A DNA stretch of 64,000 nt from positions 9,418-73,417 of the forward strand of contig CAYSMH010000002.1 of NCBI GenBank assembly GCA_964432275.1, in the 5' to 3' direction. The notes beneath the pieces are model-generated. The model did not search any database. It was given only the letters and a program-made list of their open reading frames with translations, and was not told where the DNA came from. Below are positions 29,592 through 60,150 of this stretch, piece by piece. A program made the position numbers and the translations under genes. Every line of letters starts with the position of its first letter. Positions within the stretch are counted from its first letter, which is position 1. This DNA comes from an uncultured Candidatus Saccharibacteria bacterium. Lineage in GTDB: Bacteria; Patescibacteriota; Minisyncoccia; Phycocordibacterales; UBA9973.

Positions 29592-31265
29592 TTATTTCTT
29601 CGTCACCTCTCCGTAGTCCCCTTTCGACAGATACTTCGCGATATCGTCTTTGGCCACGCCCACTTTTTTATGAGGGTTGAAGATATACATAGGGTCAAAG
29701 ATTTCTTTGGTTTCTTGGAAGAGGTTGGTGACGATGGAGCCGTACTGTTTCTCGAGGTATGGTGAGCGAATAATGCCGTCGTTGTGCTCTGCTGTGATAG
29801 AACCCTTGAACTCAAGTACAAGATCGTACACTTCATCAGAGAGCGTCAGGATAATCTCTCGCGTCTTGGGATCCTTGAGATCCATGAGTGGGATAATGTG
29901 AAAGTTGCCATCTCCAGGATGTCCTGCGATCGTGTATGTGAGATCGTATTTTTTCAATATCGTATCGAGTTTGGGCAAGAACTCTGGCAAATACTCAGGC
30001 TTGACCACAAAGTCATCGATAAACGGTGCAGTGTGCTTGCCTTTGACATGCTTGCGCAGGAGGTTGAAGCTCTCGTGACGCACATCCCAGTATTTGCCTT
30101 CTTCGGCTTCACTTTGGGTGACGTGAGTAAGTACACGAAACTGATCTTTGAGTACACGCGAGAGTGATGTTGCCTTTTGTTGGATGACTTCATGATCATC
30201 TCCGGCAAACTCGATGAGTAAGATCATTTTAGGAATACCGCCTGCAAGCGTCATAAAGAACTCAGGGATAAATGAGAACATAAACTTGATCATGCCCCAG
30301 AGCTTCTTTTTCTTGAGGAAGTCTCCAAAGAACTTCACCGCTACTTTGAGTGTGTTGTCATCGTAGCTTTCGATACTTTCGGGATGCTGCGTGAGCGCCA
30401 CGTTTACGATCCGCCCGATATCTTTCATGTCTTTGAGAAAGACAACACACAGTGTAGAGAACTTCTTGACCGGTACGAGCTTGAACGTGATCTCTGTGAC
30501 GATGCCGAGCGTACCTTGTGAACCGACGATAAGTCTGCAGAGGTCAAATGTTTCTGTTGTAGGATCCCAGACGTTCCAGAGGTAGTATCCGGCAGAGTTT
30601 TTAGATACATCAGGCTTTGCACCGGTGATCGTCTTGATATTGTCAGTTATGAGCTTGTACAAACGTCTGTACATATCTGCTTCAAATCCGACTTCCCCCA
30701 CCTTGGTCATGAGCTCTTTGCGCGTCATCGGTCGTACGGTGTACTCATAGCCGTCGGTGAACACGACCTTGAGCTCCTTGATGTAGTTTTCTACCTTTCC
30801 ATAATAAATAGACTTCTCTCCGCCTGAGTTGTTGGCAACCATACCACCAACCGCACACAGATCGCGCGATGCAGTATATGCAGGCATGATGAGGCCTGCT
30901 TTTTTCGTTTCAGTATCAAAATCTCGATAGTACGTACCTGGCAACACTCTCGCCCACTGCTCGACAGCGTTGACCTCCAGTGTCCCTGTCATGTAGCGAG
31001 TCGTATCGATAATGATACTCTCGCCAAGTGCGCCCCCACTCATACAGGTACCTGCAGCACGCATTGTGATCGACAGTGTTGGATCATTCTTTTTCTCAGT
31101 TGCAACGTATTTCACCACAGCTGCAATGTCAGCACTGTCTTTGGGGAAAACCACCACCTGTGGTCGCATTTCAAACAGTGACGCATCACGCGATGCCTTG
31201 TCGAGTGCTAGTTCACTTGTATCGACATCTCCTTTGATTATGTTTTTGATATCGTCTGCAATCAT
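29592..31265 (-). CDS. FAD-linked oxidase (PCMH-type FAD-binding domain; GlcD/D-lactate dehydrogenase-like)
   Basis: 557 aa; FAD-binding segment RAAGTCMSGGALGESIIID...AVGGMVANNSGGEKSIYYG and C-terminal oxidase domain. Confidence 0.8.
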   Translation of the reverse strand: MIADDIKNIIKGDVDTSELALDKASRDASLFEMRPQVVVFPKDSADIAAVVKYVATEKKNDPTLSITMRAAGTCMSGGALGESIIIDTTRYMTGTLEVNAVEQWARVLPGTYYRDFDTETKKAGLIMPAYTASRDLCAVGGMVANNSGGEKSIYYGKVENYIKELKVVFTDGYEYTVRPMTRKELMTKVGEVGFEADMYRRLYKLITDNIKTITGAKPDVSKNSAGYYLWNVWDPTTETFDLCRLIVGSQGTLGIVTEITFKLVPVKKFSTLCVVFLKDMKDIGRIVNVALTQHPESIESYDDNTLKVAVKFFGDFLKKKKLWGMIKFMFSFIPEFFMTLAGGIPKMILLIEFAGDDHEVIQQKATSLSRVLKDQFRVLTHVTQSEAEEGKYWDVRHESFNLLRKHVKGKHTAPFIDDFVVKPEYLPEFLPKLDTILKKYDLTYTIAGHPGDGNFHIIPLMDLKDPKTREIILTLSDEVYDLVLEFKGSITAEHNDGIIRSPYLEKQYGSIVTNLFQETKEIFDPMYIFNPHKKVGVAKDDIAKYLSKGDYGEVTKK

Positions 31266-46578: not shown

Positions 46579-47295
46579 ATGAAAATCTACTTTTTCGACA
46601 CCGAAACTACAGGCAACACCCACGACGATCGACTGTGTCAGCTCGCGGTCAAGGAGCACGGTGTGACGGAGCCATTGATCAATGAGCTGTTCAAGCCACC
46701 ACTCTCTATCCCCTACGAAGCAAGTGCAGTCCATCACATCACCAACAAAATGGTTGCTGACAAACCGAGCTTCCGGGAGTCTCCACGCTACAACGAAATC
46801 AAAACACTCTTTGAATCCCCTGACACCATAGTCGTCGCACACAACGCATCGTTTGATGTGGGTATGCTGATTGCCGAAGACATACACCCAACCAACGTCA
46901 TCTGTACGTACAAAACCGTACACTTTCTCGACGGACACGGGCAGTTCAAGCAACACAAGCTCCAGTACTTGCGCTACGCACTCGACATGGAGCTCGACGT
47001 CCCTGCACACGATGCATTTGCCGACGTACTCGTGCTTGAGCAACTCTTTGACTACCTCCTCGCTCGTCTCATAAAAGACGGCAAGACTGAACAAGAAGCG
47101 CTCGATGAAATGCTGCGTATCAGCAGCGAGCCGATGTTTATGCGAGAGCTCACCTTTGGCAAGCACAAAGGTATGCGCGTCGAAGACGTGGCACATGTCG
47201 ATCCAGGGTATCTCTCATGGCTGTTGTCAGAGAAGCTCAAGAATCCAAGCGGCGAAGAAGACTGGATCTATACATTGAAAAAGTTTGTGAAGTAG
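46579..47295 (+). CDS. DEDDh 3-prime-5-prime exonuclease (DnaQ/ExoX-like) with C-terminal DUF3820-like tail
   Basis: Exo I YFFDTETTG, Exo II VVAHNASFDVGML, Exo III HDAFADV; C-terminal LTFGKHKGMRVEDVAHVDPGYLSWLL motif. Confidence 0.75.
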   Translation: MKIYFFDTETTGNTHDDRLCQLAVKEHGVTEPLINELFKPPLSIPYEASAVHHITNKMVADKPSFRESPRYNEIKTLFESPDTIVVAHNASFDVGMLIAEDIHPTNVICTYKTVHFLDGHGQFKQHKLQYLRYALDMELDVPAHDAFADVLVLEQLFDYLLARLIKDGKTEQEALDEMLRISSEPMFMRELTFGKHKGMRVEDVAHVDPGYLSWLLSEKLKNPSGEEDWIYTLKKFVK

Positions 47296-47883: not shown

Positions 47884-48933
47884 ATGCAAATCATATTGAT
47901 CATTATTGGTATCGCTATCGGAGGCCTCGTCGTATACCTCCTCACGCGCAAACCTGCGGCACCTGCTGCCGACACCACCGGTTTCTCGCTACTCATGCAA
48001 CAAGTCGCCGATCTCCAGAAGGTCGTTGATCACAAGCTCTCACAAAGTGAGCAGTCTATGCGCGAGAGTATGCGCGATCAAAGTACACAGAGCGCGCGTA
48101 TCATTTCTGATATCACGGAACGTCTGACACGACTCGATGAGGGCAACAAACAAGTACTCGGATTTGCCGAAGGACTCCAGCAACTCCAAGACATTTTGAA
48201 AAATCCGAAACAGCGCGGTGTACTCGGTGAGTACTATCTCGAGACATTGCTCAAGAACATCTTGCCGCCGTCTGGCTACATGATGCAGTACAGCTTCCCC
48301 GACGGCACAATCGTCGACGCAGCAGTGTTTGTTAAAGACAAAGTGATCCCTGTTGATTCCAAGTTCTCGCTCGAGAACTACAACCGCATGACCGAGGAAA
48401 AAGAACCTGCTCGCAAACGAGACCTCGCAAAAATATTTGAAAACGACCTCAAGAACCGCATCGCCGAGACATCCAAATACATTCAGCCCGAGAACAACAC
48501 CATGGACTTCGCATTTATGTTCATCCCGCACGAAGCGATCTACTACGATCTACTCGTCGGTACTGTCGGCGCAGGCGAAGAAGCCGAGAACCTCATCCAG
48601 CGTGCAGCATCCAAATACCGCGTGATCATTGTCTCCCCCACCTCGTTCCTTGCGTATCTCCAGACCGTCCTCCAGGGACTCAAGGCGCTCCAGATCGAAG
48701 AGAGCGCCAAAGAGATCCGCAAGCGAGTCGATGAGCTCGGTCGCCACTTGGCAAGCTATGAGGAGTACCACAACAAGCTCGGTACAACACTCAAGACAGT
48801 AGTAAACCACTACAACAGCGCTTCCAAAGAACTCAAAAAGGTGGACAAAGATGTCATGCGCATCGCCGGTACCGAAGCGGCACTGGAGCCATTGATCCTC
48901 GGAGAAAGTGAGATCGAGCGAACCATAGAATAA
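47884..48933 (+). CDS. rmuC: DNA recombination protein RmuC
   Basis: N-terminal TM, long coiled-coil, C-terminal RmuC nuclease-like core (KQRGVLGEYYLETLL..., VIPVDSKFSLENY, FMFIPHEAIY). Confidence 0.85.
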   Translation: MQIILIIIGIAIGGLVVYLLTRKPAAPAADTTGFSLLMQQVADLQKVVDHKLSQSEQSMRESMRDQSTQSARIISDITERLTRLDEGNKQVLGFAEGLQQLQDILKNPKQRGVLGEYYLETLLKNILPPSGYMMQYSFPDGTIVDAAVFVKDKVIPVDSKFSLENYNRMTEEKEPARKRDLAKIFENDLKNRIAETSKYIQPENNTMDFAFMFIPHEAIYYDLLVGTVGAGEEAENLIQRAASKYRVIIVSPTSFLAYLQTVLQGLKALQIEESAKEIRKRVDELGRHLASYEEYHNKLGTTLKTVVNHYNSASKELKKVDKDVMRIAGTEAALEPLILGESEIERTIE

Positions 48934-50347: not shown

Positions 50348-50422
50348 GGCCCTATCGTCTATCGGTTAGGACGGAAGCTTCTCAAGCTTCAAAGCGGGGT
50401 TCGATTCCCCGTAGGGTCACCA
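50348..50422 (+). tRNA. tRNA-Glu (anticodon CUC) with encoded CCA
   Basis: Hand-folded: acceptor ggcccta/tagggtc (one G-U), D stem gtct/ggac, anticodon stem gaagc/gcttc with loop ttCTCaa, T arm cgggg-ttcgatt-ccccg, discriminator A then CCA. Confidence 0.8.
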
Positions 50423-50433
50423 TTTAGAGCTAG

Positions 50434-50447
50434 CCCGAGAAGGCTCA
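50434..50447 (+). repeat. att-like repeat copy 0 (cccgagaaggctca) 11 nt after tRNA-Glu
   Basis: Degenerate copy of the tRNA 3-prime end ccccgtagggtcacca. Confidence 0.45.
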
Positions 50448-50494
50448 TTAAGAGGTATTCTTGATTTAATTAAAATGCTAGGATTCCATTTGTA

Positions 50495-52885
50495 ATGAAA
50501 TTCCTAATTAACGAAATTAAAGAATGGAAGCATGGTTGGCTTCAATACCTCAAATACAGCTGGAAACTCACTGTATGGCTCTATATAAGCAGGTGGCGAC
50601 GACTTACCACTTTTCTCAATAAGCACTCTGGTCTAATACGGCGTAGCTTGTTTTTAGTAGTTGGTCTAATTGTGGCACTAGTTGTAAATCGTTTCAGTGG
50701 CATAAACTTCACACAAGACATATTGAGTAATTACCTGATTGCTCTTGGTGCAATGATTGGTGGCACAATTGCGATTGTATTCACGATTTCCATCTTTCTC
50801 ATTCAGAGCGCCGCGGAACTTTACTCATCGCAGTACTTTGAAGTATTTATACACGATTGGAGAGAAAAGTTTGTGTATTTTGTTGTAATAATAATCACAC
50901 TCGCTTTCTTTGGAGGCGGTCTATACATTGGAAGCCTGGTGGCCATTTCACTACTGGTTAGCTCTATTACTGTAATTGGATCCCTTATCCTGACAGGTGC
51001 AGTGTTTGCCTTGATAGACTGGCAATATAAAAATGTTCGTCAAAAACTGAACCCTTCCGAAGCAATAGCTTTCTTGGAAAAAGAAGGTGTGCGCTTCTTA
51101 AATAAATTACAATCTGATGCAGAAAAATTGGCTGATATCTTGCGCGCGAGGAATAGCGAGATAACTAAAGATATGGCACTCGCACAAGCATATAATCAGT
51201 TCTTACAGTCATTCATAACCAATCTCGATAGACAGCTTGAAAACCTCGTAGAAATATCTATGAAGCTTGCCGATAAACAGGAAGTTGCTACAACGAAGAG
51301 AGGTTTTACCGCAATTTACAATATCCTCGCGCGTTTCTTCGAGGCTAGAAAAACATCATCCTTAATTATTCCTTCGGGTATCGCATTTTTGGCTGTAGCA
51401 AGCGACAGTCAAACATTCTTGAATAAGAATTTTGAAAGACTAAACAAGGCTGGCGAAAAGTTTATAAAAGAAGGTAAGGATGAAGTAGCAACCTATATAA
51501 TCGACGTATACAAAGCTCTAGCCTTGAAAGCAAAGGATATTAACTTTGTCAGTGGCAGAAATGAGAACCCTGTACTCGAACAATTGGTCGGCAATCTCGA
51601 TTTCTTTATTCAAAACGGCGAAAGAGCAAAAAATGTGGAAGTTGTATTTCAAGGCGCACGTGTTCTTACCGATATCGCTGTAATTGCTGCTGACAAAGGA
51701 CTTGATGCAATGCTGCGAGGTATTCAACAGAAGTTATTGCGAATAGCTATCTTTGCAATTACAGAAAAGCAAGGTGTCATTATAGATAGATGTAATACCT
51801 CATTCCAAACAATAATCGGCGCAGTTTTTGGAAGCTCTCGAATTGCTCGTAGATTTCATTTTGATGACAGCTTGAAGAATATCGCTACCATAGCAACATA
51901 TCTTTCTAATTTTATAAAAAGCGGGCTGTACCCAAATGATATAGGTTCAAAGTTTACATTAAGTAAGGCATACGATGAGTTGTACGTCCTTATTGTGAAT
52001 ATATACAATCACTACCCCGAGATTACAGGAGTCAGAGAAAAAGACAGATACCGAGGTGACTTTGTGGAATTTCTTGAAGAACTATACTCAAGCTTGAGAA
52101 ACCTATCAGAGAAAATAAAAACTGCCGACAATACGCTCACAGACAGTATTGGACGACTACTTTTCAATATAAATAATCTTATTGCTGTCGCCATTGAAAA
52201 CCCAGAATATGCATCAAATAAAGTCGAGCTATTAAGACGATTAAGCTGGAATATCTATCTTCCAACTTGGTTCGCGAGTCACAGCGATAAATTCGATGCT
52301 GGTTCAAACGCATTTAATACGTTTGTGGATGGTATAGCAAAAATAGGTATTATAGCTGCACAAAATCTTGGCGACAAAAAAGTAGTAAGCGCTTGTGTCG
52401 AAAGTATTTTTTCACTTACAAAAACAAGCCTAGAGAAAAATACCGACAGTCACGGCTACGATGAGCCTCGTATTCTGGAAAAAGCGTGCTATCTAGGGAT
52501 TCTAGCTCTTAAAAAAGATTGGGATGATATTTTTGTTGATGTTGCAATGAAGATATATGAATTTGAGCCGCTCTACGCAGCAAAGTACTTCTCAAACATT
52601 CCTGCTGGTATCGATCCAGAAAGACTTTCCCCGAAAAAGAAGCAGTTGACTATCGAGCTTTGGAAGTGGCGACACGATTTCGATAGAGAGCTTATGAACG
52701 GTATGTTGCGGATAAGAGACGATGCCGAAGCAATGATGTATGAAGTAATTGATACTTACGACATAGATAAATTTATTTTTAAGGTTTGGCAAACTTATGA
52801 TGTAAATACGAAATTTGGACAAGAAATGGAGTTAAAATTAGCAAGAGAAGCACTTATCAAGGTTCTGAAAAAACTTAAGAAGTAG
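50495..52885 (+). CDS. hypothetical large membrane protein (796 aa): N-terminal 4-5 TM helices plus ~600-aa helical cytoplasmic domain
   Basis: ATG ORF, AT-rich; first gene of island; no recognised catalytic motifs. Confidence 0.55.
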   Translation: MKFLINEIKEWKHGWLQYLKYSWKLTVWLYISRWRRLTTFLNKHSGLIRRSLFLVVGLIVALVVNRFSGINFTQDILSNYLIALGAMIGGTIAIVFTISIFLIQSAAELYSSQYFEVFIHDWREKFVYFVVIIITLAFFGGGLYIGSLVAISLLVSSITVIGSLILTGAVFALIDWQYKNVRQKLNPSEAIAFLEKEGVRFLNKLQSDAEKLADILRARNSEITKDMALAQAYNQFLQSFITNLDRQLENLVEISMKLADKQEVATTKRGFTAIYNILARFFEARKTSSLIIPSGIAFLAVASDSQTFLNKNFERLNKAGEKFIKEGKDEVATYIIDVYKALALKAKDINFVSGRNENPVLEQLVGNLDFFIQNGERAKNVEVVFQGARVLTDIAVIAADKGLDAMLRGIQQKLLRIAIFAITEKQGVIIDRCNTSFQTIIGAVFGSSRIARRFHFDDSLKNIATIATYLSNFIKSGLYPNDIGSKFTLSKAYDELYVLIVNIYNHYPEITGVREKDRYRGDFVEFLEELYSSLRNLSEKIKTADNTLTDSIGRLLFNINNLIAVAIENPEYASNKVELLRRLSWNIYLPTWFASHSDKFDAGSNAFNTFVDGIAKIGIIAAQNLGDKKVVSACVESIFSLTKTSLEKNTDSHGYDEPRILEKACYLGILALKKDWDDIFVDVAMKIYEFEPLYAAKYFSNIPAGIDPERLSPKKKQLTIELWKWRHDFDRELMNGMLRIRDDAEAMMYEVIDTYDIDKFIFKVWQTYDVNTKFGQEMELKLAREALIKVLKKLKK

Positions 52886-52899
52886 AAAGCTTCAACTTC

Positions 52900-53349
52900 T
52901 TATTCCTCAACCCCACCATCTGAGGAGTAAATCTTCTCGTATAGAATTGTGAGAAAGCGTTTGGTGTGTTCAGGTATAGAAATAGATTGAAGTGTCTCCT
53001 TGAATACCTCTGGAAGCATTGTCATACCTAGCAAATCCATTTTCGCATTTGTACTATCAGGACCATTCTGATTTGCAGTCAAGAAGTGGTTAATTGCGAT
53101 TAAAAATTCATGAGAAGTAATGATGTCTTTGGAACGATACTGATCAAGCACGGCGGCAAGTTCACTCTCCATGTCTTGAGTTGTTTGATACACCATCTCA
53201 AGGTCATTAATTTCTTTGGTATCGAGCTGCCCCTGTTCAAGTAGCTTTTTAGCGCAGTCATTTAGCACAAAGCGAAATTCAGCCTTGATGCTTGGAATAA
53301 CCTCTATCTTTGCTTGATCTATCTGATATTGTTCAAATTTTGGATTCAT
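52900..53349 (-). CDS. hypothetical protein (149 aa), downstream partner of the 1008-aa ORFan
   Basis: ATG ORF 5 nt downstream of the large gene on the same strand, implying an operon. Confidence 0.4.
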   Translation of the reverse strand: MNPKFEQYQIDQAKIEVIPSIKAEFRFVLNDCAKKLLEQGQLDTKEINDLEMVYQTTQDMESELAAVLDQYRSKDIITSHEFLIAINHFLTANQNGPDSTNAKMDLLGMTMLPEVFKETLQSISIPEHTKRFLTILYEKIYSSDGGVEE

Positions 53350-53354
53350 AGGAT

Positions 53355-56327
53355 TTATGCAGCTATTGATTCAACTTCTCTAGTAACTCGTTGCACTCCT
53401 TTATGCTGAAGCAATTTGTCCATATGATGATTGAAGCGATTGAGCAATATCTGCGATTTATGAATAATCATTTCTTCTGACGCTCCTTGCGTATAGTAAT
53501 ACCCCTCTCGCAAGGCACCTGTATCAAAGATTGATTGCTGTGGACTGCCGTCCATAATATCTCCATAATTTTCTTGCTTCATAGTATCGAGGACAGCTTT
53601 TGCATTAACGGGACTATTACTATCTTCCTGTGGCGGCTTCAAGAAGAAGTTATTGATATGAGTGAGCGCGTTCACAAAAGACTCGGTCTGTCTTCCGAAC
53701 ATATCACCACCGACTATCTGTATAGTAGCTGTAATATCCTTAACTTCTTTTCCTTCGGTGAGCTTTCTATTGCGTACAATATCAATATGCTCAGCTGTAT
53801 CAATATAGGAACCGTCCTTGGTAAGAACGTATCCATTGAGTTCGCTATCCACAAAAGAGGTGTTGTGCTGTTTAATAGCCTCCACAGTATCTGTCACTAA
53901 AGAAACCCATTCATAGAGAATGTCTCGCTCCTGGTCACTTTCAAATGGCTGTTGCAGCCAGCCATTATCAACCAGCATTTTCTCAAATTGGTCTGCAGTA
54001 GTAGGTATAGTGCCAAGGTCTGCAGTTTCTGATATGTATTTGTTGGCAATCTGCATGGCAATACCCGCATGATGTGACGTGAGAATTGCCTTTTCAAACT
54101 GCTCTACACTATCGGTTGCCATACCCTTGATTTCACAGCGACGACCTTTTTGTTCGCTATCCTCAAAATGATCAAAGTTCTTACTATGGATATCTTTTGT
54201 GTTGTTCACATCCTTACCAGCAGTTATTCCTGTAAGCTGTGCCATAGTCATAACGTTGTTCAAGAAATACATTTGACCATCTACTTCTAGCCCTCCATCC
54301 CCAACGAGTGATAGGTGGTACCCTCGAGCAGCCTTATCATACCGATCAAAATTAAAATCAAGGAAACCTGCATCTTGTAAAAGCTTAACCTCCGCCATGA
54401 GCATGTAGGGATTATAGTTAGGTCGTAGAGCAATTTCGTGAATACCATCATTACCTCTTCCAATATTTGCGCTCTTGCTCACTAGTTGGATATCTTTTTT
54501 GTATCCCAACATGCTCGTATTGCCATATTCCTCGCCAACAGACCCTGTGACTTCATATTCTATACCCATCGAAACTCTGGCATCTTTCGGGATTGCGTCG
54601 TGGTTATATTTGTTGAGCACGGTTTCTATTGATTCCATTTTCCCGACGAATTGATCAGGATTCTCTGTGCCGTACGCAGACAGTGCAATAGCGATCAGGT
54701 TCTGCCCCTTTTTGCCGTGTTGACTCTCAAACCGCTCCAAGATTTCCAAAATGCTTTTTGGCAGTCGCTCTCTATTTTCAGACGCCCAAAAAGATTCTTG
54801 AATGTGTTTATTGTTTAGTATCTTTTCCTCATTATTAATTCCGTTTTTTTCTTTATCCTGTATCTTTTCAAAGGCAATGTCATATACGGTAGACTGCTCT
54901 GAATAGCCATCTCTAAGGAATGGGAAGTTCTCGATAGTTCGTGCAGCTTCCTCAAAGTTTAACTCTTGCGCACGTATGTCTAATACATTCTTTATTTTCT
55001 CTTTGACTTCTTCAGACTCAAGAATCTCCTGCGGGATGCCATAGTGATCAATAAAATCAACTAATGTTTCTGGTCGTATAGATGCAATGCTTGGCAGAGA
55101 ATTGTATATGGTTTTTGTTATAACTTCTTTTTGTAAATCGAATTTCCTAATGATGTCATCAATGTCGCTACGGACAGAACTATCAGACCCATATTGTGTG
55201 ATTCTTGCCTCTATACATTTCAAGGCAGATCCCTGCATCTCCGGAGATGCAAGTGCTTCTCGAGAAAAATCAAAATATTCCAAAATCCTCTTTGTTTGGA
55301 AATAATGCTCTCCTCTTGGTAGAAATTTTAGCAACCCTTCCAATACTTTACTCTTGGTCTCTTCTGAGTTTTTCTCTTTTTCAAGGTTCTCAAATTTTGT
55401 AGCGATATTGAAGAAATCATAAAATCTACCTGTTGTTAGATAATCATTCAGAACATGCTTCAAAATTTCAGTTTTTACTTCACTGCTGAGATTCTTTGAT
55501 TTTTTTACGTATTCTATGGTTGCTTCAACTCGGCCATCTTGTATATCATTCTTGAGTACAGTAAAATCTTCTGCATCGATGCCTTGGAACTTATCCACAA
55601 ATTCCATTACATACCTTCCATATCCGAGCGCAGCAAGTTGATGAAATGCATCTTTGCTGTATTTGCCATCTGGCGCATTTTCAAGCGCACCATCAACTTG
55701 ATAGGTGTTTCTTTCTTTTGATTCCGCAAGTGCAATAAGAAATGACTCCGGTGCTGTGGTACAGGTACCATAACTTCCGAAGTAATTACCATGATCGGAA
55801 TCAGTGAGATTATTTTTGAATTTCGTCTTCAGCAGCGCCTCAATGTCTGATTCTGAGAATCTGTGTTTCTCCCCGTATCCCACTACATAGTCCCGAATAT
55901 CGCGTATGTTCCAGTTCTCATTTTCATAACTTTTGCTATATTTTTTTACATCGGAATAGTCCTCCTCATAGAGTAGCGCAATTTTTGCTTTCTTTACTAG
56001 CTCAGGATCAACTGGGATCTTTCTCGTGTAGTCACGACTATCTTCCAGTACTTTTCTAATTCTAAAATTCAACAAGTCTTTTGCCGCTACAATAGTTTCT
56101 TCCGGACCTTCGGTAAGTTGGTTATCTGCGGTCTGGATCGTCTTTACGTCCTCATACAAGCGATCCATAGTCTCCTGCTCATACTGCTCGAGCGATACTC
56201 CATCTGGTTTCATAATCTCCAAAAGTGGAACTATTTCTTTGTGATATATGGCTTCCGCCCTATCTGCAGCCGTTTCTTGGCTTTCCAGAGGGGTAATTTC
56301 TTCGAGCTGAGGGAGTGATTCTTTCAT
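53355..56327 (-). CDS. hypothetical very large soluble protein (~990-1008 aa); weak, unverified resemblance to GS-like amidoligase strands in one segment
   Basis: Continuous ORF to 56381 (alternative ATG; the first 18 codons look non-native, so MKESLPQ at 56327 is preferred); no Walker, HExxH or GxSxG motifs; segment RVSMGIEYEVTGS...NDGIHEIALRP...GYHLSLVGDGG has a GxExE-like pattern. Confidence 0.55.
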   Translation of the reverse strand: MKESLPQLEEITPLESQETAADRAEAIYHKEIVPLLEIMKPDGVSLEQYEQETMDRLYEDVKTIQTADNQLTEGPEETIVAAKDLLNFRIRKVLEDSRDYTRKIPVDPELVKKAKIALLYEEDYSDVKKYSKSYENENWNIRDIRDYVVGYGEKHRFSESDIEALLKTKFKNNLTDSDHGNYFGSYGTCTTAPESFLIALAESKERNTYQVDGALENAPDGKYSKDAFHQLAALGYGRYVMEFVDKFQGIDAEDFTVLKNDIQDGRVEATIEYVKKSKNLSSEVKTEILKHVLNDYLTTGRFYDFFNIATKFENLEKEKNSEETKSKVLEGLLKFLPRGEHYFQTKRILEYFDFSREALASPEMQGSALKCIEARITQYGSDSSVRSDIDDIIRKFDLQKEVITKTIYNSLPSIASIRPETLVDFIDHYGIPQEILESEEVKEKIKNVLDIRAQELNFEEAARTIENFPFLRDGYSEQSTVYDIAFEKIQDKEKNGINNEEKILNNKHIQESFWASENRERLPKSILEILERFESQHGKKGQNLIAIALSAYGTENPDQFVGKMESIETVLNKYNHDAIPKDARVSMGIEYEVTGSVGEEYGNTSMLGYKKDIQLVSKSANIGRGNDGIHEIALRPNYNPYMLMAEVKLLQDAGFLDFNFDRYDKAARGYHLSLVGDGGLEVDGQMYFLNNVMTMAQLTGITAGKDVNNTKDIHSKNFDHFEDSEQKGRRCEIKGMATDSVEQFEKAILTSHHAGIAMQIANKYISETADLGTIPTTADQFEKMLVDNGWLQQPFESDQERDILYEWVSLVTDTVEAIKQHNTSFVDSELNGYVLTKDGSYIDTAEHIDIVRNRKLTEGKEVKDITATIQIVGGDMFGRQTESFVNALTHINNFFLKPPQEDSNSPVNAKAVLDTMKQENYGDIMDGSPQQSIFDTGALREGYYYTQGASEEMIIHKSQILLNRFNHHMDKLLQHKGVQRVTREVESIAA

Positions 56328-56469
56328 ATTTTCTCTGGTGACCTCAGTATAACAACAGAGTATAAAAACACCATAAGGCATTAAAAGTCTCTATCTGTTA
56401 TAGGCTCACCTTTTAGAGAGCGCTCGAGTAGTGTCAAAGTTCTCTTATTTTATCTGTCTAAGATATAAT

Positions 56470-56904
56470 ATGTTTATGGAAATAATTGAAATGACATCAG
56501 AGCAAGAATCTGAATTAAAGATTTTCAAAGGACTTGTATGGCCTGAAGCCGACAAGGACCATTATGGCGAAAATCAACCAAATTTTTCTCGAGATGAATT
56601 TACATTGATTGCAAAAGAAGACAGTGAAATTGTCGGATACATCTCAGTTGTTATTGACACTGGTGTTGCACAAATTGAACCACTTATGGTTAAAACTGAT
56701 TTGAAAGGAAAAGGGATAGGAACAAAACTACTTCAAAGTGCTGAAGAAAAAGCAAAGGAGTTGGGGGTTCATAAGGTGTGGCTTGAAACCGGTTCTGACT
56801 GGCAAGCGAAAGGCTTTTATGAAAAACATGGCTATCAAGTTCGTAGTGTACTACCAAACCATTCAGGAGGAAAAGAATTTGTGTTAATGGATAAAATGAT
56901 CTAA
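56470..56904 (+). CDS. GNAT-family N-acetyltransferase
   Basis: IVGYISVVIDTGVAQIEPLMVKTDLKGKGIGTKLLQSAEEKAKELGVHKVWLET (acetyl-CoA-binding motif A); tataat immediately upstream; ORF-track GTG extension to 56431 rejected. Confidence 0.7.
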   Translation: MFMEIIEMTSEQESELKIFKGLVWPEADKDHYGENQPNFSRDEFTLIAKEDSEIVGYISVVIDTGVAQIEPLMVKTDLKGKGIGTKLLQSAEEKAKELGVHKVWLETGSDWQAKGFYEKHGYQVRSVLPNHSGGKEFVLMDKMI

Positions 56905-56907
56905 CAC

Positions 56908-56921
56908 CCGAGAAGGGTCAA
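56908..56921 (+). repeat. att-like repeat copy A (cccgagaagggtca)
   Basis: Identical to copy 0 except one base; lies right after the GNAT stop codon. Confidence 0.45.
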
Positions 56922-57056
56922 TTTAAAATCCAAGATAATAGTGAAATAACCTTACAGGGTAATGGATCAAAAGGTTCTATCTCGAAAAGGTTCACAGAAT
57001 CTGAGAAAGAAAAAAGCCGAACGGTTAGGTTCGACAAAAAATAATTAATTCCATAT

Positions 57057-57638
57057 CTACTCTGGTGAAAGCTGCAATCCTGCCTCTACTAACGCTTGGC
57101 TTATCTCGCTTGCAAACCGTTGCGCAAAGTTTCTGAATTTTATCAGGTCACTTTCTTTGTACTGAACTAAATCTCTCAGTTGAAATATTTTTGCCGAATT
57201 TAAGCAATTCTTTGCACGTACTGATATATTCAGATCATCGATCGTTAGCTTAGCAAGGATGTCTTCCTGTTCCTGAGTAAATCCATCTTCTGATAGTACC
57301 GAAGTCCAGAAACCACTTGGACGATTAAATGAGTACACAAAGCAACTTACCCTTTCAGCTGTAGGAATTTTGTGTTGAATAACAGTACCCAGAGCTTTGG
57401 CAAGCTTTTGTTTGACTGTAGAAGTACACATCGGTTTTTCGAACACCGTCGCTTCAACGACAATATCTGTTCCGAGACCGTATTGCATCAAATCAGATGG
57501 GTACAAGAGCGTCATATCTTTTTCGCTTTTGTAACCGAGTTCTTCAATACTGACAACTGCCGCAACAAGTGCGTTATGGAGGTCGTGCAGTTCCTTTTCT
57601 TCCATTTTCGGAAGACACCATGTTTTGATTACAGGCAT
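57057..57638 (-). CDS. fusion protein: tautomerase-superfamily-like N-terminal region (Pro-1) plus RNA polymerase alpha-CTD-like HhH domain
   Basis: Starts MPVIKTW...KELHDLHNALVAAVVSIEELGYKSEKDMTLLYPSDL (4-OT-like beta-alpha-beta with a Pro after Met); C-terminal LNISVRAKNCLNSAKIFQLRDLVQYKESDLIKFRNFAQRFASEISQALVEAGLQL matches the alpha-CTD pattern. Confidence 0.45.
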   Translation of the reverse strand: MPVIKTWCLPKMEEKELHDLHNALVAAVVSIEELGYKSEKDMTLLYPSDLMQYGLGTDIVVEATVFEKPMCTSTVKQKLAKALGTVIQHKIPTAERVSCFVYSFNRPSGFWTSVLSEDGFTQEQEDILAKLTIDDLNISVRAKNCLNSAKIFQLRDLVQYKESDLIKFRNFAQRFASEISQALVEAGLQLSPE

Positions 57639-57741
57639 ATAGAATAGTTTTGAGTTTAAAATGAATTTGCTCCCACTCTACCGTATTTATTGACAAAGTC
57701 AAGGTTGGGTTGTAATGTAATAAAAACTAAAACTTTTACAT

Positions 57742-58332
57742 ATGGTTAACGCAAGCAAAGTAAAGCAGCAACGCTTCTGGAATATGTGGCGCACATCTGG
57801 CGCCATAGGCACCATTACCACCTACCCCTCTGCGGTAGTTCGGGAAATTGACGGCCAATTAGTATTAGATGATCCAATGGCAGCCGCAATGATCCGGGCG
57901 ATAGAAAAGGATAACTGTAAAAATACATTCATCGTTCAAAAAGATCGGGTTGAACATTTCAAAAATAGAATGGCTCAAAAACAACTATCTCCGCAGGATG
58001 CAGTGATTGTACTGATTAATGCTGATGATGTTCACGGCACCGACCTTGCGGAGCACTTAATGCCTGGGACTGATTGGCAAGCCATGCGTGATAACGGCGA
58101 AATACCGTTCGCACACGGACTTACTACAAAGGAAGGTATGGTGGGCATCCTAAAACTCTTTGACAAAGAAGCATCAAAGAAATTAGAAAGAATGACGACC
58201 ACAGCTGTTGTGGTTGTCGATCACGGAGTTGCGGAGGTTTTTGATGCAGATAACCCGAATGGCGAAACAGTTATTCCATCTAGGCTGCCTGGGAGAATGA
58301 GACAGTTTATGAACGGCGACGGCGATTGGTAA
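57742..58332 (+). CDS. hypothetical protein (196 aa), divergent partner of the tautomerase/alpha-CTD gene
   Basis: ATG ORF; promoter ttgaca-17-taatgt with palindrome ttgacaaagtcaa in the shared 100-bp intergenic region. Confidence 0.4.
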   Translation: MVNASKVKQQRFWNMWRTSGAIGTITTYPSAVVREIDGQLVLDDPMAAAMIRAIEKDNCKNTFIVQKDRVEHFKNRMAQKQLSPQDAVIVLINADDVHGTDLAEHLMPGTDWQAMRDNGEIPFAHGLTTKEGMVGILKLFDKEASKKLERMTTTAVVVVDHGVAEVFDADNPNGETVIPSRLPGRMRQFMNGDGDW

Positions 58333-58457
58333 AAAGCCAAACAAAAATTTTGAGCCTGATTTTTTAGTCAGGCTCTTTTTATTGAAATATGGATTGTGAC
58401 AGATAGGTCTAACTTTATAAGGCAATTCCGTGTCACTTTTGTCACTTTTTATAGACG

Positions 58458-58471
58458 CACGAGAAGGGTCG
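58458..58471 (+). repeat. att-like repeat copy B (cacgagaagggtcg)
   Basis: Shares the 11-mer cgagaagggtc with copies A and C. Confidence 0.4.
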
Positions 58472-58516
58472 GTACGGAATATGGAAAATGGTAGAACGGG
58501 CATTGTGGGGCAAGGC

Positions 58517-58553
58517 GGAGCGGGGTTCTATCTCGAGAAGGGTCACCATTTTA
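58517..58553 (+). repeat. att-like repeat copy C / degenerate tRNA-Glu 3-prime half (gcggggttctatctcgagaagggtcacca)
   Basis: Aligns to the tRNA T-arm and acceptor 3-prime strand plus CCA (gcggggttcgattccccgtagggtcacca), but the T-stem no longer pairs; preceded by a D-arm-like tggtagaacg at 58488. Confidence 0.5.
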
Positions 58554-58565
58554 GAAAAAAAATCC

Positions 58566-58590
58566 TCACGAGGAGGATTTAAAAAATTTT
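58566..58590 (-). terminator. terminator hairpin downstream of 58589..59002 gene
   Basis: tcctc-acgag-gagga flanked by A/T runs. Confidence 0.4.
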
Positions 58591-59002
58591 ATTTCTTTTG
58601 AGTAGTAAAAACACCTGACAAGCTATAATATAGTACAGCTATAATCGAACTCCCAAAAAACAATGCCTTCAGTATGTTGAAAAAGTCCAGAGAATGAAAT
58701 AATTTTTCAATACTTACATTCATAATAAACATACTCCATAAACCAAACAAAATTATAGCTATACTCAATACATATAAGAGACTCCGAAATAACCTTGCTG
58801 TTGTCGATCGTTCTTTTTGATTCTTTTTTATTTTTGGAGACCCGTACACGACTATTGAAATGGTGATTATACAATAATTGAGTACAAAAAATAATGCAAC
58901 AATTTCCGCAATGTTTTGATTATTGGTAATATATGCAAATATTGCAACTATAATACTTAAACAAAAGAAAAATACACTGATATAAAACTGTTTAATGTTC
59001 AT
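58589..59002 (-). CDS. hypothetical small membrane protein (137 aa, 4 TM)
   Basis: AT-rich hydrophobic ORF. Confidence 0.4.
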   Translation of the reverse strand: MNIKQFYISVFFFCLSIIVAIFAYITNNQNIAEIVALFFVLNYCIITISIVVYGSPKIKKNQKERSTTARLFRSLLYVLSIAIILFGLWSMFIMNVSIEKLFHSLDFFNILKALFFGSSIIAVLYYSLSGVFTTQKK

Positions 59003-59139: not shown

Positions 59140-59562
59140 TTAGGCAACGGCCTGATGAGGGGTTGATTCATATTCTTCGATTTCTGTAGTAAATACCACT
59201 CTTCCCTTTTGCCATTTCGCAGTAGGAACAGTAGCAAGTATGAGCTCGGTAAACGAACGTTTGACGTACGGACCAATAGTGATACTTTGAAGTTGAAAAT
59301 AAAAATCGATAACCGTCGTAGGATCCGTAGCAGCATGTGATTTTACAAATCTTTTTGCTGCGGATATCCCACTGGTGCGAATCATATGTTCGATCGATAA
59401 AAAAAGTACTCCTATGGCAACGATATTGCATAGTATGGACACGATTATGGGGTGAATGAGTCCAATACGGATATTCAAAAGTGTTACCAATAGTATCGAA
59501 ATACCGAGTGAAATGCTAGAGCGATACCGCAGCAGACGAATGATTGTTTTCTCTGTATTCAT
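59140..59562 (-). CDS. hypothetical membrane protein (140 aa; 2 TM plus C-terminal soluble domain)
   Basis: ATG ORF with terminator; no motifs. Confidence 0.4.
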   Translation of the reverse strand: MNTEKTIIRLLRYRSSISLGISILLVTLLNIRIGLIHPIIVSILCNIVAIGVLFLSIEHMIRTSGISAAKRFVKSHAATDPTTVIDFYFQLQSITIGPYVKRSFTELILATVPTAKWQKGRVVFTTEIEEYESTPHQAVA

Positions 59563-59682: not shown

Positions 59683-60150
59683 ATGCTCATGGAAAATCAA
59701 ATAGAAAAACCTGTATACGAAACTGAATCTGCTATTCTTTCTTTTTCAGGAAGTGGTAACCTTTTTCTTTGTGACGACTATAATGCACCTATAAAAATAG
59801 GTAGCATCGTCTATCAATCAGTGCGCGCTGCAATGTTAGCGTACAAAACGAAAAACCCTCGTATAAAAACAAAAATTCGTAACGCAATCACTCCTGCAGA
59901 TCTTAAGGTACTAGAAAGAAGTATTAGTACCCCTTCATATTGGACCAAGGAGTACATTATTGCAAAAATGACTGAGCTTACAATACAAAAATTTATTCAA
60001 CATCCTCAGTTAAAAGCAAAATTCCTTGATACAAAACCTAAATCACTAAAAAACAAAACTGAACCAACACTTCAACGATTTGAGATCGATGAGGTGTGCG
60101 ACGAACAAACATACGCAGACATACTGATGAATGTTCGTGAACAACTCTAA
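59683..60150 (+). CDS. NADAR/YbiA (DUF1768)-like domain protein
   Basis: SIVYQSVRAAMLAYK, YWTKEYIIAKMTELTIQKFIQHPQLKAKFLDT and C-terminal YADILMNVREQL fit the NADAR pattern (yQA.Kf ... W...vM...l..KF.q...L...Ll.T ... LG.iLM.vR..L); promoter with 7-bp inverted repeat ttgtcaa/ttgacaa upstream. Confidence 0.55.
   Translation: MLMENQIEKPVYETESAILSFSGSGNLFLCDDYNAPIKIGSIVYQSVRAAMLAYKTKNPRIKTKIRNAITPADLKVLERSISTPSYWTKEYIIAKMTELTIQKFIQHPQLKAKFLDTKPKSLKNKTEPTLQRFEIDEVCDEQTYADILMNVREQL

Follow-up and report, generated by a model that had tools for sequence, protein, structure and literature searches.

In the glutamine synthetase (GS)-like fold, ATP binds at one end of a cradle formed by a curved β-sheet, and it is with this fold that PafA ligates a protein carboxylate to lysine (PMC3511204). 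The superfamily of carboxylate-amine ligases to which it belongs includes GS, glutamate-cysteine ligase (GCL), PafA/Dop, which has Actinobacteria as hosts, and the YbdK/GCS2 enzymes (PDB 1tt4; E. coli YbdK), stand-alone proteins of about 370 amino acids (aa). Amidoligase_2 (PF12224) reportedly (Iyer et al. 2009) comprises GS-like amidoligases of phages and conjugative elements. By genomic setting, the closest described systems are the cassettes of prophage ends and defence islands (‘morons’ and candidate PADLOC systems). Here, these systems are compared with a two-gene cassette found in the window (the whole stretch of 64,000 nucleotides (nt) that was analysed, contig CAYSMH010000002.1), in what appears to be a tRNA-Glu-linked variable hot spot of a Parcubacteria (candidate phyla radiation, CPR) genome with several unrelated accessory genes. 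We consider it probable (roughly 60%) that the cassette encodes an ATP-dependent amidoligase and its cognate small regulator or substrate, carried as cargo of mobile elements and with a probable role in conflict. The parts of the cassette are as follows.

53355-56381 (minus strand): open reading frame (ORF) of 1008 aa, coding for a soluble, acidic protein without transmembrane (TM) segment or signal peptide
53355-56327 (minus strand): probable real ligase gene, 990 aa, starting at Met19 of that ORF
53358-54764 (minus strand): C-terminal domain with the carboxylate-amine ligase (GS/GCL/PafA/YbdK) fold, residues 540-1008
55542-56294 (minus strand): N-terminal module of ~250 aa, residues ~30-280 of the big protein, common to giant CPR proteins without the ligase
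52900-53349 (minus strand): 149-aa ORF of the acidic partner, separated by 5 nt from the ligase gene upstream of it
52896-56374 (minus strand): the mobile two-gene cassette of 3.5 kb, consisting of the big ligase gene, the partner gene and ~50 nt upstream

A first, word-indexed search with the 1008-aa protein returned five proteins only. Full-length relatives had a small gene directly downstream, as in L001 (1077 and 147 aa) and L003 (1005 and 139 aa; L001-L047 are the loci or contigs compared with the window), and the small proteins are homologous (39-45% identity). With 21 further metagenomic loci added and the partner sought with an iterated profile, the big gene was found with the partner directly downstream in at least nine loci (the window, L001, L003, L022, L024, L027, L032, L038/39 and L045-47), and in every one of them the two genes are separated by about 3-6 nt or overlap by a few. 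Apart from the partner, no neighbour is conserved around the big gene in the family loci compared. When the window was compared by blastn with L045 and L046, two large Joint Genome Institute (JGI) contigs, 52896-56374 aligned with their positions 10454-6977 at 85.4% identity over 3484 nt, the sole other nucleotide similarity being the tRNA-Glu region. The borders of the cassette are sharp, lying 4 nt past the stop codon of the partner and ~47 nt upstream of Met19. Protein identity to L045 is 84% for the big protein and 94.6% for the partner, and the dN/dS values (0.11 for the ligase gene and 0.115 for the partner) indicate purifying selection. Over the same region (L045 7026-10450, window 52900-56327), dS is 0.75 for the ligase gene and 0.25 for the partner, a three-fold gap despite equal dN/dS, which hints either at recombination within the cassette or at an extra nucleotide-level constraint on the partner gene. 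The comparison also bears on the gene start: because in L045 a TAG stop interrupts the 18-codon N-terminal extension of the 1008-aa ORF, so that the stretch from the upstream ATG is not kept as coding sequence there, the start of the big gene was moved to ATG 56327, which judging from this alignment is probably the true one (990 aa).

An exhaustive HMMER search with a three-sequence profile of the big protein gave a family of at least 207 representative clusters (at 50% identity), 189 of them at E ≤ 1e-10, and the ORFan status that an earlier note on this DNA had attributed to the protein does not hold. The conserved region corresponds to the C-terminal ~470 aa (residues 540-1008) and is always C-terminal, in proteins of ~630-1854 aa (median ~1240) which are soluble (TM-like segments in 3 of 128) and, where named, are called ‘hypothetical protein’. 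With a cut-off as permissive as E ≤ 10, Pfam still matched none of 32 full-length members and 13 isolated domains. Profile searches of the PDB sequences gave chance matches only, and literature searches yielded no description of the family. Its fold is nonetheless recognisable by structure comparison: the AlphaFold (AF2) model of the domain, built from an 85-sequence alignment (predicted local distance difference test score, pLDDT, 93.4; predicted template modelling score, pTM, 0.94), contains a curved antiparallel β-sheet cradle on helices, as in the GS-like fold, and its closest fold match is YbdK (PDB 1tt4). The predicted structure fits the published description of the cradle. After the motif region follows a conserved helical C-terminal subdomain of ~200 aa.

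The residues found to be invariant or nearly so are E608, E610, (H648) E649, N657-P658, N677, H689, E750, D757, E760 and Q777; for E608, E610, E649, H689, E750, D757 and E760 this holds among 32-85 divergent members. They fall in the motifs GIEYE (E608, E610), GIHEIA (H648, E649), NPY (657-659), RGYHLS (H689) and CEIKGMATD (E750, K752, D757), followed by E760 and Q777. E608/E610, E649, H689 and E750-x-K752 are invariant or at least 90% conserved, with position 752 being R in most members. In the model, E608/E610, H648/E649, H689 and E750 are carried by predicted β-strands, D757 belongs to the loop that follows the final strand, and E760 is at the start of the next helix. The motif order is the same in E. 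coli YbdK, where the counterparts of GIEYE, IHEIAL, RGYHLSLVG and CEIKGMATD (motifs 1 to 4) are GIELE, MLELAT, GQHVHVG and VEVRVMD, respectively; this residue mapping relies on motif order and predicted strands and not on an hhalign alignment. The earlier note had faintly recognised GS-like amidoligase strands in the GIEYE, GIHEI and GYHLSL segments, and this resemblance proved correct. These segments are the most conserved positions of the family.

At the level of sequence, none of the described families claims the protein. Comparison of the domain profile with E. coli YbdK by hhalign gave a probability of 0.1% and no alignment, and the hidden Markov models (HMMs) for Amidoligase_2 (PF12224), GCS2 (PF04107), Pup_ligase and Gln-synt_C matched neither the window protein nor the 32 members or 13 domains, even at E ≤ 10. 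Identity of the ligase domain to YbdK is ~10%, with no HMM or hhalign match, and while YbdK stands alone, the present domain is the C-terminal part of proteins of 700-1850 aa, with the extra ~200-aa helical subdomain and, in the subfamily of the window protein, a dedicated small partner. Compared with GS and glutamate-cysteine ligase, the window protein lacks the N-terminal β-grasp domain of GS, shows no sequence similarity and differs in size and architecture. The family resembles Amidoligase_2 in its mobile-element association, in the same superfamily motif logic and in its best matches among viral models: Foldseek against BFVD gave weak, consistent matches to phage ‘Amidoligase enzyme’ models (E 1e-3 to 0.1, probability 0.8-1.0, TM-score 0.2-0.4). 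Amidoligase_2 genes usually stand beside genes for GAT-II/NTN-hydrolases and gamma-glutamyl cyclotransferases, none of which was seen in the ligase loci examined. Because fold and motifs fit the superfamily while every sequence test for an individual family fails, the big protein is rated as a new family, with a new architecture, within the GS/GCL/PafA/YbdK carboxylate-amine ligase superfamily.

Some members (P0238-P0265 and loci L031 and L042) are broken into short ORFs under translation table 11 or are rich in W, which makes up 4-5% of their residues and occupies conserved Gly positions. This is a sign that lineages reading UGA as Gly (code 25), such as Gracilibacteria/Absconditabacteria, are among the members, and because of these W-rich members the family is considered to span much of the CPR, with several of its classes.

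Since the ExE / E / H / ExK(R) set, the putative metal- and phosphate-binding residues of the fold, is retained, the domain is likely to be an active ATP/Mg-dependent carboxylate-amine ligase, a Dop-like amidase being less likely. It would bind ATP and Mg2+ and phosphorylate a carboxylate, most likely that of a Glu/Asp side chain or of the C-terminus of a protein or peptide, or else that of a small acid, and an amine would then be ligated to the acyl-phosphate-type carboxylate. A macromolecular substrate is favoured over a small metabolite because of the very long helical N-termini and the structural proximity to PafA/Dop and the phage amidoligases; the long N-terminal region would in that case select the target.

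The N-terminal half of the big protein is helical, and its ~250-aa module recurs in giant CPR proteins without the ligase, joined to at least 3-4 different C-terminal regions which were not recognised. Their matches in the HMMER search covered profile positions ~20-340 only. One such family, of 1250-1614 aa (L005 5577-10421, L006 159-3926; P0004, P0005 and relatives), has only this module in common with the ligase protein, and Pfam returned nothing for seven of the relatives sharing only the module. In both loci examined (L005 and L006), these genes are followed by a convergent gene for a Phage_integrase (an Xer-like tyrosine recombinase). By analogy, this modularity recalls polymorphic effectors.

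The partner, apparently translationally coupled to the ligase gene across the 5-nt gap, is an acidic protein of 129-149 aa which is predicted to be folded, shows no hydrophobic segment in its 149-aa window form and has the invariant residues E16, Y54 and G96 (the latter in a GP[DN] motif), and for which neither a family nor a PDB match was found (including Pfam searches with eight partners). Because it is tightly coupled and co-transferred, it is best seen as a cognate binding protein, which would act as an inhibitor or regulator (immunity-like) or as a dedicated substrate or adaptor. Its C-termini vary (...GGVEE, ...NSKTT, ...YQKI, ...KLVR) and none of the invariant residues is C-terminal; a Pup-like modifier was considered for the partner and is ruled out by these unconserved C-termini. 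The differences from PafA/Dop extend further: the Pup_ligase HMM does not match the window family, a conserved GGQ/GGE is missing from the C-terminus of the partner, a proteasome/Mpa context is missing from the ligase loci, and the hosts are CPR bacteria instead of Actinobacteria. A bolder proposal, which we regard as unlikely, is that the giant CPR proteins with this C-terminal domain are PafA-like protein-modifying amidoligases and that, in the mobile cassette, the partner serves as tag, substrate or sensor in an immunity or exclusion system which the prophage carries and which works by ATP-dependent amidation of a viral or host protein.

The partner occurs only with the subfamily of up to 1350 aa, the members of 1450-1730 aa having unrelated downstream genes; a partner fused inside the partner-less giants or diverged downstream of them was sought, and neither was found. 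These features also bear on the possibility that the two genes form a toxin-immunity or polymorphic pair, in which the C-terminal ligase would inactivate an essential target by amidation or a glutamylation-like modification and the 149-aa protein would confer immunity. The directly downstream and co-transferred small gene, the combination of the N-terminal module with different C-termini and the location of the pair on a prophage or island would suit such a pair. We find it rather unlikely, however, given that the big protein has no signal peptide, TM segment or known trafficking domain (no secretion signal or known trafficking domain was detected in the ligase family either), that many members have no partner gene, that the partner is more conserved than the supposed toxin, and that the alternative C-termini include no known toxin domain.

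The genomic contexts of the cassette are varied. In L045/L046 it directly follows the gene of a large serine integrase of phage type (phrog_95, 1e-66), its upstream side also carrying genes for the large subunit of a terminase and for a Sie-like protein. The other side carries small ORFs, a DUF4238 protein (L045 11551-12468, minus strand; PADLOC DUF4238-Pers, 2e-14), tRNA-Glu(ttc) and tRNA-Val, and then FtsZ/FtsA. This site is a prophage-end cargo position. The Sie-like OB-fold protein (L045 327-803, minus strand; phrog_8545, 9e-22) is encoded in the same cassette-carrying prophage, and together with the DUF4238 gene it makes up a small cluster of exclusion/defence candidates in a CPR genome. 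In L003, three tRNAs and a RhuM protein (PADLOC PDC-S05, 1e-153) precede the cassette; in L027, a tRNA-Lys follows the partner; and in L038, a HerA/mad8-like ATPase (weak PADLOC match) converges on the cassette. In L001, the cassette is inserted between homologues of two genes which in the window are adjacent to each other, coding for an FAD oxidase (29592-31265) and ribosomal protein L25 (28451-29101). L022 is collinear with the window on both flanks, of which one has FtsI and a 293-aa membrane protein and the other 156-aa and 254-aa genes, RmuC and an exonuclease, on to Obg. Within the variable stretch, L022 and the window have only the cassette and tRNA-Glu(ctc) in common, the tRNA being on the opposite side of the cassette relative to the window. 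L022 lacks the other window-specific genes of this stretch and contains a TPM-domain protein and two unknowns instead. A tRNA-Glu gene adjoins the cassette in both L022 and L045/46, and at least four different genomic positions of the cassette were found. The cassette is mobile between prophage ends and tRNA-linked islands of CPR bacteria.

It is because of the prophage-end and defence-island contexts that a role in conflict is favoured. As cargo of a prophage or island, the cassette would most probably serve inter-genomic conflict, in the form of superinfection exclusion, defence or an addiction/toxin-type function. The suggestion of the earlier note that the interval is a defence or toxin locus stands for the pair as mobile cargo, with the serine integrase, DUF4238-Pers and RhuM/PDC-S05 nearby; for a set of four genes it does not. 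The cassette is similar to those known from prophage ends and defence islands in being next to an integrase, DUF4238-Pers and RhuM/PDC-S05, in being tRNA-linked and in having sharp borders, and differs from them in that no PADLOC or PHROG model matches either of its proteins, making its defence role a candidate one.

Several observations weigh against an amidoligase cassette serving conflict as mobile cargo. The PADLOC search gave no match for the cassette proteins, and no integrase is present in the island of the window. No ligase-domain homologue was found among the 2.9 million viral contigs of IMG/VR. The partner, being better conserved than the enzyme (94.6% versus 84%), is unusual for an immunity protein. 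Finally, the members of 1450-1850 aa are mostly without partner and lie among ordinary genes, which means that a conflict role may not hold family-wide.

Because these partner-less members sit in ordinary contexts, a lineage-specific cellular or metabolic enzyme is retained as a tentative, if doubtful, alternative, whereby the ligase would produce a gamma-glutamyl-type small molecule or modify a housekeeping protein, the partner would be regulatory like GCLM or the cyanobacterial GS-inactivating factors, and the island location would be incidental. The wide distribution of the family, which is CPR-restricted and includes code-25 lineages among its clusters, the ordinary genes around its large members (GlyRS, NUDIX, helicases), the strong purifying selection, the same chromosomal neighbourhood of the cassette in the window and in the divergent L022, and the closest fold match, YbdK, being a small-molecule ligase would all be in line with this. 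An incidental island location is, however, difficult to bring together with the number of genomic positions, the integrase and prophage adjoining the cassette in L045/46 and the sharp homology borders; in addition, metabolic ligases do not typically have N-terminal regions of 500-1400 aa, and the distribution is patchy (the five proteins of the word-indexed search). A benefit to the phage itself is very unlikely in our view: in this reading the ligase would help the prophage, in infection or in lysogeny, to take over the host or to counter its defences, as proposed for phage Amidoligase_2. The cassette is indeed at a prophage end in L045/46 and its best viral structural matches are phage amidoligases, but those Foldseek scores are weak (E 1e-3 or worse, TM-score 0.2-0.4), no homologue was found in IMG/VR, and the cassette persists without remaining phage genes in the window, L001 and L022.

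The mobile amidoligase cassette has two neighbours which the earlier note had joined with it into one convergent module, and the four ORFs concerned were confirmed at their coordinates. The two additional genes are the following.

50495-52885 (plus strand): 796-aa ORF, coding for a membrane-anchored alpha-solenoid protein; an independent accessory gene outside the cassette
56431-56904 (plus strand): ORF of a GNAT acetyltransferase, divergent from the ligase gene

All four genes are real, as homologues exist and dN/dS is ~0.11 for the ligase/partner pair. Scans of Pfam, NCBIfam, PADLOC and PHROGs gave no match for the 796-aa, 149-aa and 1008-aa proteins, and in the PADLOC scan proposed earlier for these three, significant matches were limited to neighbours in other loci. 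The 796-aa gene does converge on the operon, with 14 nt between the stop codons and the 5-nt spacing within the operon. A single defence or toxin-immunity system made up of all four genes, in which the membrane protein would be the effector and the GNAT the modifier, would be suggested by their adjacency on a low-GC stretch beside tRNA-Glu and by the same arrangement in a second sample of the same strain (contig L044). It also finds some support in L045, where the slot between tRNA-Glu and the cassette, held in the window by the 796-aa gene, is occupied by the DUF4238 defence candidate, which marks it as an accessory-gene slot. Nevertheless, we judge such a system highly improbable. None of ~25 other ligase-family loci has a homologue of the 796-aa protein or the GNAT, none of 10 other loci of the 796-aa gene has the cassette or the GNAT, nucleotide homology to the nearest relative stops at the cassette borders, the collinear L022 has the cassette without either gene, and the 796-aa protein is only a scaffold-like solenoid. 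Co-occurrence, the check that the earlier note had put forward for the 796-aa, 1008-aa and 149-aa genes, is seen for the 1008/149 pair only, the 796-aa and GNAT genes being absent from all other loci of the pair apart from same-strain L044. The cassette is the only functional unit of the interval, and the 796-aa and GNAT genes are unrelated neighbours.

The 796-aa protein was described earlier as membrane-embedded at its N-terminus with a helical tail, which was borne out: it has four TM segments, with hydrophobic stretches only within residues 44-176, and its AlphaFold model (59-sequence alignment, pLDDT 85.8) shows N-terminal TM helices followed by an all-helical domain. The fold of the helical part is HEAT-like, that is, a generic, scaffold-like alpha-solenoid. 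The protein had also been called effector-like; no effector-like fold was recognised, and no structural or sequence likeness to transporters, pore-formers or known defence effectors was found. Nor is it an ORFan, since the word-indexed search gave 112 clusters of full-length homologues (34-75% identity), the labelled ones being from Parcubacteria (Buchananbacteria, Uhrbacteria, Paceibacterota, Minisyncoccales). Among 11 distinct loci compared, no neighbouring gene is held in common, and the ligase protein, the partner and the GNAT are all absent from the 10 loci other than the window. A tRNA gene lies 72-224 nt upstream of the homologue in 4 of the 11 loci (the window, L007, L009 and L013), and these four tRNAs are all different (Glu, Asn, Ala and Trp). 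This proportion is far above the ~2-4% expected by chance and suggests tRNA-proximal insertion or reliance on tRNA promoters. In L011, serine recombinases flank the homologue. A core or housekeeping gene was considered given the wide distribution and good conservation, and rejected on account of the missing conserved context, the four different tRNAs and the recombinases of L011. The absence of shared neighbours, the differing tRNAs and the serine recombinases point instead to a solitary accessory gene of variable regions.

The identity of the GNAT was upheld by its Pfam match (Acetyltransf_1, 4.6e-20; 72.5 bits against a cut-off of 20.7). It is RimI-like, but scores 56 bits with the RimI equivalog model (NCBIfam), below the cut-off of 86.4. 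Following the gene call in L044, its start is probably at 56470 (56470-56904, 144 aa). As it adjoins the cassette elsewhere only in this same-strain contig, the GNAT is an independent gene of the hot spot, without linkage to the cassette.

The elements framing the variable region are the following.

50348-50422 (plus strand): tRNA-Glu(ctc) (ARAGORN; Rfam 56.8 bits), anchoring the variable region, with 72 nt between it and the 796-aa gene downstream
56904-56995 (plus strand): first copy of a repeat of ~92 nt, its 3' part resembling the tRNA-Glu 3' end; an att-like scar
58455-58551 (plus strand): second copy of the repeat, in which 58519-58551 matches the final 33 nt of the tRNA-Glu region at 82% identity; candidate distal end of the island

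GC content over 50423-58551 is 0.395 versus 0.436. The two ~92-nt copies are 1551 nt apart and flank a pair of genes, coding for an RpoA-CTD protein and a 196-aa protein. A CGAGAAGGGTC-like sequence stands at both ends of each copy, the 3' part is similar to the tRNA-Glu 3' end (AGCGGGGTTC...GGGTCACCATTT), and a shorter copy, CCCGAGAAGGCTCA, is found at 50434-50447, after the real tRNA. The ~92-nt repeats may be att scars or a small repeated element. The window also contains further partial copies of the tRNA-Glu 3'-end repeat beside the one at 58519-58551, and an Rfam scan of 50.2-60.2 kb gave nothing besides the tRNA. The tRNA-island setting described in the earlier note is therefore supported by the lower GC, the degenerate tRNA-Glu 3'-end repeats and the variable content relative to the collinear L022. 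Overall, the interval appears to be a variable hot spot linked to tRNA-Glu, in which integration scars have decayed and the cassette forms the mobile cargo.

Other genes of the region were noted as well. The RpoA-CTD gene between the repeat copies (57057-57638, minus strand) codes for 193 aa, with an N-terminal domain of ~120 aa that was not recognised and the C-terminal domain of the RNA polymerase alpha subunit (PF03118, 1.7e-17); on an island, an alpha-CTD standing alone in this way could serve to hijack transcription or act as a decoy. The family of its partner, the 196-aa gene at 57742-58332, was not recognised. On the distal side of the variable region, a NADAR-domain protein (59683-60150, plus strand; PF08719, 5.7e-09; phrog_1017) has as neighbours two small multi-TM proteins (58589-59002 and 59140-59562), one with a GC of 0.28. 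The RmuC and exonuclease genes (47884-48933 and 46579-47295), which closely precede the hot spot, have a GC content at third codon positions (GC3) of 0.63 compared with 0.27-0.48 in their neighbours.

The genomes of CPR bacteria (Patescibacteria) are rich in large unannotated proteins, and their mobile elements and conflict systems are little known. With the present analysis, the carboxylate-amine ligase fold is assigned to at least 207 clusters of giant proteins that curated databases had missed. The two-gene, 3.5-kb cassette is a tractable construct with clear catalytic residues, and it carries the hypothesis of an ATP-dependent amidation of a target which is controlled by the partner or acts on it. 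That four genes were formerly read as one system shows how neighbours in a hot spot can look like an operon-level module. If the giant proteins were indeed PafA-like amidoligases in defence, they would add a biochemically new mode to prokaryotic defence, and the first that is specific to the CPR.

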